The notes beneath the pieces were generated by a model. That model was not told the DNA's origin, made no database searches, and worked only from the letters and a program-made list of their open reading frames with translations. The position numbers and the translations under genes were made by a program. A stretch of 64,000 bases of DNA from Octopus vulgaris (Eukaryota). The first letter of the stretch is position 1; each line of letters begins with the position of its first letter. Location: assembly GCA_951406725.2 (NCBI GenBank), contig OX597814.1, positions 211,792,001 to 211,856,000 on the forward strand. The letters are read 5' to 3'. Shown here one piece after another: positions 3,871 through 63,645 of the stretch.

Positions 3871-3950
3871 ATGCCGTTTCAAGCGGCTCTATTTAATTAT
3901 ACAATACAATCATTACATCAATTGCAAAGCAGGACTATCCTCAGCTGCAT
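3871..3950 (-). ncRNA. Broken type-I hammerhead ribozyme motif with long stem II
   Basis: Minus strand reads atgcag-CTGAGGA-[57 nt hairpin]-GAAA-cg-gcat; the stem III/cleavage triplet appears deleted. It has the same flank (tcaaaataagcaaca) as the 39136 element. Confidence 0.45.
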
Positions 3951-4619
3951 AAATAATTAAATAGAATTTTTAATCAGTTGGACATGTTAATATAATTTTA
4001 CTCAAATACTCTAAAAGAGCAAGAAGATGGAACGTGTCTATGTCGCCACTAATGTAGCTAAGAATATACTACACTTGTAAGAATTGCATGAAGTTTGTTG
4101 GTATCGCAGCTTGTATAGGATTGTAGTTTATTTTGAATATATTAGTCTTTTTATCAACTTCCATATCTAAGATTAGAGGACTGTGTCTGTTAAGAATGGA
4201 GGGCAGGAGTGATTTGATAGGCCATAGCTGGATATCGTCATAAATATTGTCAAGATTCCTAGGATTAGTATAGAGTAACTCTCTATAAAGGAGGAAGGGT
4301 AGGGGAAGACTCCAAATAAATATGTTAATTACCAGTCAGAGGGTCAAGACGCTAATAAATCCTATATGTTAATACAGAGGAAATTATTATGGGGTACTAA
4401 GGGTGATTGCATATAAATACTTTTGTTATGTTGTATTAAAGTAAAACTTAAGATTATTAAAAATGATATTATAACCGAAATAAATAAACGTGCATATATA
4501 CCAATTTTCAAAATTGGAAAGGGAAGATTCCATAGAATTTGTTTTCAATATTTATGTACTTAATTATTTACTTGTTAGTTTATATATATATTCTTATATT
4601 TATATACATTTATATATAT

Positions 4620-5688
4620 TCATTGACATTGAGTAAACTTTATCTTTCAACATACCCCAGACAAAGAAATCAAGGGGAGAAAGGTCTGCTGAACGAGGGG
4701 ACCATTCCATATGACCCCTTCTTCCAATCCAGTGAGAAAAAGTGTCATTAAGCCACTCTCTAACAGCTGTGGCAAAATGGGTAGGGGCCCCATCCTGCTG
4801 AAACCAGTTCGGAAAGCCCTCGCCTAAGTGCTCAATTTGAGATATTAATTTGTCTCTCAATATGTTTACATAAGTCCCATCCGTTAGATGTTCAATGAAG
4901 AAGGGTCCTAGAACATGAGCTTTCCACAAACCACACCACACCATCACCTTTTTGCTGCCTTGCTGTTTGGATGGATCCATCCAATGTGGATTACCTCGAG
5001 ACCAGTATCGAAGATTCTGTCTGTTGACCTCACCATTTACTTAAAACGTAGCTTTGTCAGTGAACAACACAAAGGTTTTCGTAAAACTGATATTTTCATC
5101 CAATTTATTCGAAAGCCATTCGCACGTCTACATTCGTCTATCAGGGTCGTCTTCATTTAAGTGATGCAATATCTGTAGGTTATATCGATGAAACCTTTCC
5201 TCAACCAGCATTGTGTGGATGGTTGGTTGGTTTTGGAACACCTAACACCGTGGATGTCCGACGAAGTGATTTCTTTGGGCTAGCAGAAACTTTAGCCATG
5301 ACAGCCTCTTTCGTTTCATCTGAAGTCGTTGGTCACCCGCAACAGGGTTTATCCAAAACACTGCCTGTTTCTTTAAATTTCTTGATCAATTTCCCGACGG
5401 CAGTAAAATAAATAGGTTGCCTATAAGGGTGTCGAAAATTAAATTCTTCTGCAATTTTGCGATAAGACCGTCCCTCTCGTCCACTTAATAATACTAACTC
5501 GATTCTTTCTTCTTTAGACAGATCCATCATTCGATCATCTGTAGAAAAAATAACAAATAAATTTAGAAAAGTAACGTATTTTTTTTATTTGATTTAACCA
5601 AAAGTAAAAAAGGTAAATTATTATTTCTTATATTTATTTGTTTACGTTATGATTTTATTCCATGTACCCAGACTTCGTGGACACCCTA
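4620..5688 (-). mobile_element. Tc1/mariner-superfamily transposon remnant, DD40D spacing (rosa/DD41D-like)
   Basis: MDLSKEERIELVLL...KKFKETGSVLDKP; FTDKATF; FQQDGAPTH...WIGRRGHMEWSPRSADLSPLDFFVWG, with 40 residues between the Ds. End sequence agggtgtccacgaagtctgggtac at about 5665-5688. Contains stops and frameshifts and is 3'-truncated. Confidence 0.9.
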
Positions 5689-5689
5689 A

Positions 5690-6760
5690 AATTGCTTTGA
5701 TTAAAACCTTTTCAACATGGAAGTATCCAAGGAGCATTTAAGGTACATATAATTCTTTATGAGTACAATAAAGTTAACTCTGCAGCCGAAGTGACTCGAA
5801 ACATACACTCAGTTTATGGGAAAGTGCTTGAATGAAAGAACTTGCAGGAGATCGTTTGCAAAATTGAAGATGAAAAGCGAACAGGACGTCCAGTTGAGTT
5901 TGATGATAAGTTCCTTGAGGCATTACTTGAAAAAAATCCGTCATCATCAGTTGAAGAATTGGCAATAAAGCTTACTTCAAACCATACAACAGTTCATCGT
6001 CATCTTCAACAACGTGGAAAGATTCCTAAACTTGGAAAATAGGTGCCTCATGTATTGTCCGAAAGCAACCGCAAATCCCGAGTTGACATCTGCTCTTCTC
6101 TTCATTCTCGCAAACTAATTTCACCCCTTTTCGATAGACTTGTGACGAAAAATGGATTTTCTATCGAAATGTTAAACGTCGTAAAGAGTGGATTGATAAA
6201 AAGGAAAATGCTCAACCACAACCGAGAAGGGAACTTCATGGGAAAAAGGTTCTTCTCTCTATGTGGTGCGATTGCAAAGGCGTAATTCACTTTATATTGT
6301 TACCACCAAATGCAACAATCAATGCTCAAGTCTACTGTCAGCAATTAGAGTATTTGAACCAAGCTTTGAAGGAAAAAAGAGCCGCTTTAGTGAGTCGAAA
6401 TCGAGTGATGTTTCATCAGGACAATGTGCAACCCCACACTGCAAAAATTTCTTCATCCAACTTATTCTCCCGACCTTACTCTTTCAGGATACCATTCGTT
6501 TCATAGTTTACAGAATTATTAGGTGGAGGGGCACAAGTTTCGCAAGCCAAGAGGAGGTCGAACCTGACATTTCACAGTTCTTCGTTTGAAACCAAAAGAG
6601 CTTTAAATTAATGGGATTAAGAAGCTTGTAAATAGATGGAAGTAAGTCAGAGATAATCAGGGAAAGTACATTGATGATTGACTTTCAATTAAATATAACA
6701 TTTGATCACTTGTATTCTTTATCCAAAATTCGGACAGAAATTATGGGATGACCTGAGATA
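5690..6760 (+). mobile_element. Decayed mariner (DD34D-type) transposon
   Basis: MEVSKEHLR.. from 5718; RTGRPVEFD, K*VPHVLSE (WVPHEL motif), LHGKKVLLSMWCDCKG, FHQDNVQPH, YSPDL; right TIR aaattcggacagaaattatgggatgacctga at about 6726-6756. Confidence 0.93.
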
Positions 6761-61951: not shown

Positions 61952-62049
61952 TATATATATATATATATATATATATATATATATATATATATATATATAT
62001 ATATATATTAGAAATTAAAAGGCGGCTTATTAGCAATTCGAACCAAAAT

Positions 62050-62375
62050 GGAAAATTAATAGAGATCACAAAAGCGACGGAGAGTGCTGACTACCACATC
62101 TTAAGCTAAAATAAGAGTTAAATGAACGCCAAGATCCACCAACGCATTTCAACTAATAACTGACAAAGAAGGTAATTCTATAGCGTATATAGGCGCATCG
62201 CGATTATGAATTCTGGTGTAGACTATCTTACCTCTAATCAGTGGCTTACTTCCCTTTGTCAGTCAATAGGTATAGTGCCTAAGTGGCTTTGGATTTAATC
62301 TAACTCTTATTTTAGCATAAGCGGTGCTAGTCAGTACACTCCGTCACTTTTGTGTCCTCCATTAATTTTCCCTTT
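62050..62375. repeat. About 325 bp imperfect fold-back between (TA)n tracts
   Basis: ggaaaattaat.gag..cacaaaag.gacggag.gt.ctgacta..ac..ctta.gctaaaataagagtta occurs at both ends in inverted orientation; inner actgacaaag/ctttgtcagt. Confidence 0.85.
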
Positions 62376-62593
62376 ATATATATATATATATATATATATA
62401 AAAAGTTGAATTAATTATCCTAGTATGGATAATTCGGTTAACCGATACCCGGGTAGCAAATTCACGTCAGAAAAACACGGTTGAAGCTACATGCCAAGGG
62501 CAGAGATCACGTGCTTTCGTGTGGAAATTTGTGTGTGTTTTTTTAATACAAATAAATGAATGAATTTTGTTAAATCGTCGTTCAACTCCATTC

Positions 62594-63645
62594 TTGGGTT
62601 ATATAGTAAACACATATTTTAACGGTGAGAACCGAAGCAATAGAACAGAGAGGAATGAATTATTATATCAACAATTGAGGGTAAAATTAATTAGTTATTA
62701 ATCAATTTCACCAAGTAGTGTTCAGTATGTAAAAGGACCATTTAAGGCGAATTCAAAATATTATATTATATAATTAGGGCTTAGTAAAGTAAATTACTTT
62801 GCCACATACTGAACTTTCTAGAAATATTGCTTCGGTTCTCACCGTTAAAATATGTGTTTACTAGATAACCCACGTGGGTGGAAGGGGAGAGAGCAGGAAT
62901 CTTCGCTTGCGCATTTTGAATTTGTTAGTACTGGCAGTCTGAGCGTGTTCATCTGAGGTGATACCTCGCCGAAGGGTATGTTCTTCCTTTTAGTGCTTCC
63001 AAATCCAAATTAAGAAATTTTGAGCTGACGAAAGAAATGCTGAGCTTATTTGGCTAATCTAGAAACGTTAACGTTCTCAAATGATCTTTGTACTTGTGAT
63101 ATTTTTCTGTTTTCACCTCCATACCTTCGTGAGTTATTTATGAGTAAACATTATCTGGGAGAAATTTTCTTAAAGTGGTGGAAATGGCTAAAAAACTTTT
63201 TGGCTGCTATTTCTAGAAAGTTCAGTATGTGGCAAAGTAATTTACTTTACTAAGCCCTAATTATATAATATAATATTTTGAATTCGCCTTAAATGGTCCT
63301 TTTACATACTGAACACTACTTGGTGAAATTGATTAATAACTAATTAATTTTACCCTCAATTGTTGATATATATATATATATTTCTGTTTTTACCTCCATA
63401 CCTTCGTGAGTTATTTTGAGTAAACATTATCTGAGAGAAATTATCTTTAAGTAGTGGAAATGGCTAAAAAGCTTTTTTGGCTGCTATTTCTAGAAAGTTC
63501 AGTATGTGGCAAAGTAATTTATTTTACTAAGCCCTAATTATATAATGTACTATTTTGAATTCGCCTTAAATGGTCCTTTTACATACTGAATACTTGGTGA
63601 AATTGATTAATAAGTAATTAATTTTACCCTCAATTGTTGATATAT
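62594..63645. mobile_element. Penelope-pLTR/retrozyme-like patchwork with inverted and tandem copies
   Basis: About 47 bp IR 62595-62642 / 62825-62872; 62664-62826 is the reverse complement of about 63209-63369; the ~270 bp unit 63100-63370 is repeated at 63380-63645. Confidence 0.8.
63019..63081 (+). ncRNA. Type-I hammerhead ribozyme motif
   Basis: tttgag-CTGACGA(63025-63031)-a.aga...tct.a-GAAA(63062-63065)-CGTTAAC-GTT-ctcaaa: perfect 6 bp stem I and palindromic aacgttaacgtt stem III. Confidence 0.78.

Follow-up and report, generated by a model that had tools for sequence, protein, structure and literature searches.

Type-I hammerhead ribozymes are carried by Penelope-like elements (PLEs) and by retrozymes, and their genomic setting has been described in several reports, of which we draw on excerpts here and below. 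Several unrelated families per genome, and pairs on opposite strands 100–700 bp apart, were described by Cervera and de la Pena (2014, PMC4209133). PLE insertions show an inverted, 5′-truncated copy, a tail of 30–40 bp at one end and a preference for (TA)n, and Hydra-1_Obim of Octopus bimaculoides has a hammerhead (Craig 2021, PMC8557442). In the dimer model of stem III, monomers are unstable and dimers are stable (review, PMC6765202). Hammerhead counts of about 5,000–6,000 were given for mussel and coral, and of 126,247 for axolotl (PMC7229834). Retrozymes have been argued to be non-autonomous derivatives of PLEs, with one of nine tested elements found to cleave (Li 2026, bioRxiv 10.64898/2026.07.22.740005). 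In Octopus vulgaris, PLEs make up 6.83% of the genome, in 190 families (Bonar 2026, PMC13282606). Here we describe hammerhead-bearing insertions in a 64,000-nt stretch of O. vulgaris DNA (contig OX597814.1, positions 211,792,001 to 211,856,000, forward strand); this whole stretch is referred to as the window, and all coordinates are counted from its first letter.

Six type-I hammerhead folds were found in four independent insertions (families A to D), with A and B supplying two arms each. Judging from sequence and layout, A to D are probably dead, 5′-truncated, non-coding copies laid down by PLE machinery at (TA)n. The sequence-only reading of the window had counted seven hammerheads, and the candidate set consisted of the seven motifs consistent with the span, palindromes and stem II lengths that it gave. 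The core, GAAA, GUH and stem I were present in six of the seven, while the seventh lacks stem I. Stem II regions of the valid motifs range from 14 nt (A) to 59 nt (B), as that reading had stated. The three helices around the core are clear in A, C and D, and weak at the base of stem II in B; the cost of forcing the hammerhead fold is 0.1 kcal/mol for A, 2.9 for D, 3.6 and 8.7 for B, and 6.2 for C. U3 occurs together with G8 in three of the six valid motifs (both A arms and the left B arm). Stem III homodimer duplexes are stable (−4.8 to −11.6 kcal/mol), and the monomer stem III hairpins are unstable. The palindromic stem III and the PLE-like architecture bear out the earlier assignment of these motifs to the PLE or non-LTR (long terminal repeat) retrozyme type of hammerhead.

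Two descriptors, a first and a relaxed one, were written post hoc, with the candidates already known, and were compared with 200 local dinucleotide shuffles and 1000 shuffles, respectively. The first descriptor gave three matches against a shuffle mean of 0.19, and three were reached in 1 of 200 shuffles. The relaxed descriptor gave five motifs in the four insertions against a mean of 0.22; three were reached in 1 of 1000 shuffles and four in none. The excess over dinucleotide-shuffled sequence, a check named earlier, was therefore found, with descriptors that are post hoc. Four of the relaxed-descriptor motifs have a near-palindromic stem III (shuffle mean 0.033, maximum 2). As an independent check, the perfect palindromic GAAAC..GTH words of the window were located, and all four fall in these motifs, behind the core. 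It is very improbable, in our estimate, that AT-rich repeat DNA gave rise to these motifs by chance. That explanation draws on the post hoc descriptors, on the lack of any match at the Rfam gathering score, on the failure of one candidate in seven, and on the behavior of a core-only pattern in metagenomes, which was mostly chance: when metagenomes were scanned for long stem II patterns closed by G-C, 89 loci came up, of which 2 had a stem I of at least 4 bp, about what chance would give. It is contradicted by the shuffles, by the position of the palindromic words, by the match of A to the Rfam Hammerhead_HH9 model, and by family C contigs that restore a canonical pair. For A, C and D, the chance reading is already largely refuted. 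A separate observation from the metagenome scan is locus L021:401-481 (minus strand), which shows a full type-I pattern with a 6-bp stem I and a 61-nt stem II region and may be chance among the 89. Two scans of viral contigs for the long stem II pattern gave no matches.

Family A is composed of two arms, each with a hammerhead:

7561..7957, minus strand: A left arm, a full 355-nt monomer followed by 36 nt of a second one, 3′ end on (TA)33
7774..7823, minus strand: A-left hammerhead, core 7813-7807 (U3.G8), predicted cut 7783/7782, 25.5 bits on Rfam HH9
7954..8357, plus strand: A right arm, a 330-nt monomer (25-nt deletion) plus ~72 nt, 3′ end on (TA)10
8158..8227, plus strand: A-right hammerhead, core 8175-8181 (U3.G8), predicted cut 8205/8206, 26.7 bits on Rfam HH9

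The arms lie head to head between TA runs, their 3′ ends 47 nt apart in register. Both exceed one unit, which gives a terminal redundancy of 36 nt (left) and 72 nt (right), and the 355-nt repeat register holds no coding remnant. The stem II region is 14 nt long; A-left has a 4-bp stem II with the loop CAAAAA, the stem III ACTAGT and one C.A mismatch in stem I. C3U is common to both arms. Both copies align along the whole HH9 model, with the bulge of stem I and the bases of loop 2 also matched, at scores below the gathering threshold of 52; A-right does so even though it lies outside both of our own descriptors, its stem I having lost one base. The circular fold of A-left (z −4.1) is a long rod with the hammerhead at its tip. 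A looks like a retrozyme unit copied from a longer-than-unit template. In a search of sequencing runs with A, 20 of the 24 runs listed share 0.25–0.42 of the stretch; no RNA run is among those listed, and the result was not used as evidence.

Family D has a comparable, larger layout:

62825..63366, plus strand: D unit, 542 nt of an inferred 564-nt monomer, 3′ end on (TA)7
63019..63081, plus strand: D hammerhead, 6-bp stem I, core 63025-63031, stem III ACGTTAACGT, predicted cut 63075/63076
62595..62826, minus strand: D inverted arm, comprising the unit's last 163 nt, 22 further nt and the unit's first 48 nt, 3′ end not on TA
63381..63640, plus strand: D partial tandem, another 5′-truncated tail, which lacks the hammerhead and ends on (TA)n

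The unit is strongly self-paired around the hammerhead (circular fold z −7.6), whose stem II region is 30 nt long with A.A at its base. The 48-nt 5′ segment past the left arm pairs with the tail at −26.3 kcal/mol, a value as low as which was seen in none of 2000 random windows. The segment is therefore taken as part of the unit, so that the monomer would be ~564 nt long and the left arm would cross the monomer junction. At this size, D also looks like a retrozyme unit copied from a template longer than one unit.

Family B has two arms with long stem II regions (59 nt in both), and a candidate at 3.9 kb is related to it by its tail:

39037..39300, minus strand: B left arm, core 39249-39243 (C3U), stem III ACGATCGT, predicted cut 39172/39171
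39290..39452, plus strand: B right arm, core 39335-39341 (canonical), stem III ACGATGGT, predicted cut 39412/39413, followed by (TA)27
3836..3950, minus strand: seventh candidate, an invalid hammerhead with a B-related 3′ tail (3836-3862) that ends in a short TA run

The B arms are head to head, with a 37-nt tail after the cut in each; the left arm continues for 92 nt past this tail to (TA)17, an extension that may be element or flank. Apparent marks of decay are split between the arms, C3U occurring in the left arm only and the broken palindrome (ACGATGGT) in the right arm only. The core is flanked in the order ATGG-core-T...T-GAAAC..GTA-CCA, ~37 nt from the 3′ end. By these flanks, tail length and target, B resembles the ends of Hydra-clade PLEs, with no coding part kept. 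The seventh candidate was rejected as a hammerhead: nothing past GAAACGGCAUC pairs with the bases preceding the core, so there is no stem I, and neither descriptor picks it. It has a 57-nt span in the stem II position and shares with B only a 3′ tail of 22–28 nt. Two other cores were set aside. At +48112, a CTGATGA core is followed by a perfect 6-bp hairpin without GAAA and is possibly a decayed hammerhead, and at +39850 a CTGATGA core stands alone, without a GAAA partner. The latter core lies in the first copy of a repeat pair, 39450-39934 and 10671-11013 (74% over 356 bp), beside TA runs.

Family C is a single arm in the window, accompanied by a related 3′ end:

54400..54930, minus strand: C arm, single and 5′-truncated, hammerhead plus a ~436-nt tail ending on (TA)4, behind a short interspersed nuclear element (SINE)-like repeat
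54828..54921, minus strand: C hammerhead, core 54913-54907, stem III ATGGCCCGT, predicted cut 54837/54836
52717..52793, plus strand: C-related second 3′ end, 5′-truncated, on (TA)22

Its stem II region of 57 nt has a 14-bp basal helix (z −5.7). Copy evidence from sequencing contigs was obtained for family C only (54400-55590; four runs, contigs only), and statements on variants refer to those listed, beyond which there are a further 82 rows of substitutions and 18 of indels. Public contigs show that C exists in many copies: in run X15 many contigs cover 54400-54930 at a summed depth of 1,500–41,000 as opposed to 33 in one flank contig, values that are depths and not a copy number. At position 54845, nearly all of the depth in all four runs (5, 9, 2 and 2 contigs) has the letter for a C15.2-G16.2 pair, which makes the palindrome near-perfect; the mutant is therefore the copy in the window, with U15.2. 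A contig change at 54852 keeps pairing as G.U, and the change at 54866 and the listed stem II indels (in the apex, 54878-54885) lie outside the 14-bp helix. One contig in each of two runs has a strand-switch joint, 54636/54835 (5′ to 5′). The joint end at 54835 and the end predicted for the cut product, 54836, are 1 nt apart, at one locus, and we read this inversion joint beside the predicted cut as no more than a hint of cleavage. Contigs of two runs of doubtful RNA origin also cover the C hammerhead and were not taken as expression.

The link of these insertions to PLEs was evaluated from their joints and ends. An inverted, 5′-truncated copy joined at the 5′ end is present in A, B and D in the window, and in one C copy elsewhere in the contigs. 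Nine of ten 3′ ends of arms or fragments run into TA, the one at 3.8 kb having just three units; the 3′ end of B-left was itself defined by a TA run. The window contains 59 TA runs of at least 6 units and 84 of at least 4 units. Mere proximity is weak evidence in such DNA, with 55% of unmasked positions within 450 nt of a run, while exact abutment is rare (1.5% of positions within 5 nt of a run). Placement of inverted or tandem units beside (TA)n, proposed earlier, therefore carries weight as exact abutment of 3′ ends and says little as proximity. Separately, the element reads TATAAT at 39129, 62664 and 63366, where the longer B and D arms pass the end site of other copies. The pattern of ends suggests that where copies share a 3′ end, its place is determined by microhomology to the (TA)n target.

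Twin priming likewise yields 5′ inversions. A competing account would have the elements mobilized by a long interspersed nuclear element (LINE) with an apurinic/apyrimidinic endonuclease (RTE, CR1 or L1/Tx1) through such priming, or would class them as foldback or MITE-like (miniature inverted-repeat transposable element) DNA elements. LINE-like and Tc1/mariner remnants do occur in the window. We nevertheless consider this account quite improbable, as the insertions have neither poly(A) or short-repeat tails nor terminal inverted repeats around a spacer, and as the 3′ end is present in both arms and each is longer than one unit, a pattern that PLEs show.

It is possible, if doubtful, that all four families are truncated 3′ ends (pseudo-LTRs) of autonomous PLEs, with no independent retrozyme and no circular RNA. 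B and C stop 9–20 nt upstream of the core; autonomous PLEs, too, show partial tandems and tails (PMC8557442), and retrozymes and pseudo-LTRs are related (Li 2026, bioRxiv 10.64898/2026.07.22.740005). This is at odds with A, which is canonical with loop-contact bases, a 355-nt non-coding register and a rod-like fold, and with the D unit, which closes on itself across the monomer junction.

Under the reading of dead copies laid down by PLE machinery, the source RNAs would be PLE 3′ ends for B (Hydra-clade-like) and C, and non-coding units resembling retrozymes for A and D. In tandem source transcripts, the hammerheads would cut as dimers via the palindromic stem III, and the cut monomers would perhaps be circularized. 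The PLE GIY-YIG endonuclease would nick the (TA)n target, and the PLE reverse transcriptase would prime twice, leaving two truncated complementary DNAs joined 5′ to 5′. The long stem II of C (and of B and D) may be an insertion at the apex that a normal core tolerates. The window copies themselves would not release a monomer, because they have one hammerhead per strand and point mutations. Dimer formation between inverted arms was rejected: the arms are on opposite strands and have no dimer partner in cis, because one transcript contains one hammerhead and its antisense.

Several observations weigh against this interpretation. No reverse transcriptase or endonuclease (GIY-YIG) frame adjoins any of the four insertions, so that the link to PLEs rests on architecture. 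No two hammerhead-bearing units stand in head-to-tail tandem within the window, where terminal redundancy only was found; with no adjoining open reading frame and no hammerhead tandem, the elements are therefore classed neither as autonomous PLEs nor as active retrozymes. The one-sided 3′ extensions (A 47, D 70 and B 92 nt) are above the described 30–40 bp, the SINE-like repeats of the window likewise abut TA runs, and neither the Hydra-1_Obim motif nor the 3′ motif of Naiad_Ovul that was tried had a match in the window. As for folding, the deleted A-right arm has a circular fold z of just −1.2, the basal stem II of B is weak (2–4 bp, fold cost up to 8.7 kcal/mol), and stem II of D is no better than shuffles (z −0.4). 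Covariation per family had been named as a check; among the listed C contigs it took the form of a restored C15.2, one G.U-compatible change and apical indels, but of no two-sided compensatory change. At the gathering score, Rfam gave no matches in the window, and B, C and D had no Rfam hammerhead match at E ≤ 10.

The same Rfam results agree with the earlier expectation that a long stem II class is missed by standard models, as does an emulated Cervera 2014 descriptor (stem II 3–7 bp, loop 3–10 nt), which found no motifs in the window even with the first base relaxed. A was missed by that descriptor because of C3U and the stem I mismatch, and B, C and D because of stem II length. Whether the non-canonical bases and the long stem II mark a functionally distinct hammerhead class, with stem II binding a protein or standing in for the loop 1-loop 2 contact, was considered next to these results, and we find it unlikely. 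The idea gains from the 57–59 nt stem II regions of two unrelated families, from the strong 14-bp helix of C (z −5.7) with its listed length changes being apical, and from C3U in both A arms. However, C3U of B and U15.2 of C are copy-specific; together with the broken palindrome of B, they look like decay of single copies. The complementarity between loop and flanks in C is not strong (−7.5 and −4.1 kcal/mol, taken without a null). Extra N10/N11 bases beside the core are known in PLE hammerheads (Craig 2021, PMC8557442; Cervera 2014, PMC4209133), and U10.1-U11.1 was described in natural hammerheads (Perreault 2011, PMC3088659) and in the axolotl retrozyme (Cervera and de la Pena 2020, PMC7229834), so that U.U and A.A beside the core, which had been held unusual, are such known bases. 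Spike-moss PLE hammerheads also have a long loop 2 (PMC8557442). The known covariation is U3-A8 (PMC4209133; PMC3088659), from which C3U with G8 in A and B-left differs. In B, C3U did not stand as an unusual trait, since a single arm has it and decay is likely; in A, where both arms have it, it may be a trait of the family.

A more far-reaching proposal, which we put forward tentatively, is that complete hammerheads with a 30–60 nt stem II form a large, hidden class in the genome, which current models leave uncounted, and that A and D record PLE-catalyzed integration of both ends into (TA)n, with circular or multimeric RNA as the template. If true, it would provide direct invertebrate footprint evidence that PLE enzymes move retrozymes, and might also explain the "half-core" motifs described for Naiads. 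Should the long stem II families cleave, present hammerhead counts would be too low for animal genomes rich in PLEs, and claims of PLE groups without hammerheads would need a renewed search with a relaxed stem II. A and D join a retrozyme-like unit, a PLE integration footprint and longer-than-unit arms, and their junctions can be used to test for a circular template. They also bear on the view of retrozymes as non-autonomous PLE derivatives, which so far comes from vertebrate distribution and sequence (Li 2026, bioRxiv 10.64898/2026.07.22.740005).

Elements A to D fill 4.6% of the window, or 6.5% with a putative PLE remnant included, and the hammerhead density is about as expected from a PLE-rich genome. 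The claim of a large, diverse family of ribozyme-bearing mobile RNAs stands in so far as C is multi-copy; on the other side, the density is near the octopus PLE share, and earlier publications already report pairs on opposite strands, the targeting of (TA)n and a PLE hammerhead from Octopus. The putative remnant, at 50490-51700 (plus strand), is a broken and deleted coding remnant behind a (CA/TG)n tract, with no hammerhead after it. Its last 67 codons match P0067 (45% over 47 amino acids, phmmer E 3.8e-4), in a region that we take to be the C-terminus of a Neptune-type PLE GIY-YIG endonuclease. Pfam matched none of its three frames, and two word-index searches and Atlas gave no matches to it.

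The window as a whole is AT-rich (G+C 36%), microsatellite-dense, animal-type DNA. A whole-window Rfam search at E ≤ 10 gave, among the matches listed (150 of 256), microsatellite-driven microRNA matches only. Its other repeats include several SINE-like families, Tc1/mariner transposases and LINE-like remnants. A Tc1-type transposon at 60308-61968 has 241-bp inverted repeats (91%) and a frameshifted transposase (Pfam HTH_Tnp_Tc3_2 and DDE_3), and mariner/Tc1-like transposase remnants are at 4600-5040 (minus strand) and 5860-6590 (plus strand), with Pfam Transposase_1 at 6138-6503. LINE-like candidate frames at 13900-15400 (minus strand), 30380-30800 (plus strand) and 33596-34018 (minus strand), presumably decayed LINE remnants, had no Pfam match in the frames tested. 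A tandem array at 28823-29087 has 3.9 copies of a 66–67 bp unit. Outside the window, the GUUCCCAAAC...GUGGGG stretch near Naiad 3′ ends looks twister-like to us, going by the twister consensus. This stretch is conserved in the 3′ ends of Naiad_Obim and Naiad_Ovul (PMC8557442).

In the literature, we found no description of families A to D or of a 57–59 nt stem II in animal PLE hammerheads; the Repbase, Dfam and Zenodo libraries and subscription papers may hold them. Short A, B and D motifs are absent from the excerpted Craig supplement, where line breaks could hide them, and from the excerpted supplement of the O. vulgaris repeat paper, whose library is deposited elsewhere.

Compared with the pseudo-LTR hammerheads of Cervera 2014, the motifs described here are alike in being type I, with a short palindromic stem III and an extra base between core and stem II, and in occurring as several unrelated families and as opposite-strand pairs. 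They differ in their stem II regions of 30–59 nt (B, C and D), as opposed to a descriptor maximum of ~26 nt, in a stem III longer than the minimal forms, and in having no adjoining open reading frame. B shares with Hydra-clade PLEs the flanks ATGG / T..T / GTA-CCA, a hammerhead ~35–40 nt from the 3′ end, (TA)n targets (all those listed, where given) and an inverted truncated copy, whereas loop 2 of the Hydra elements is 3–10 nt long and the stem II region of B is 59 nt. PLE-X1_sMoe and sTam of spike moss, and the Naiad "HHR_half_core" motifs (one of them in Naiad_Ovul), are similar in that the halves of the core are 35–50 nt or more apart and deviate from descriptors (PMC8557442); unlike these, B, C and D are complete three-stem folds in an animal genome.

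A is like non-LTR retrozymes in its 355-nt, non-coding, self-paired unit with a type-I hammerhead, mussel units being 350–390 bp long (PMC7229834), and D, with a larger self-paired unit, is inside the reported range of 51–972 bp. Unlike retrozymes, A and D occur as head-to-head arms of ~1.1–1.2 monomers on (TA)n and not as tandem arrays; the words "inverted" and "microsatellite" do not appear in the excerpted text of Cervera and de la Pena 2020 (PMC7229834). A aligns with the whole Hammerhead_HH9 model (RF02275), from which it departs in scoring 25–27 bits against a gathering score of 52, in U3.G8 and in the stem I mismatch. PLE hammerheads on (TA)n, octopus included, are already known, and what holds up is that stem II regions of 30–59 nt escape Rfam and the emulated descriptor.

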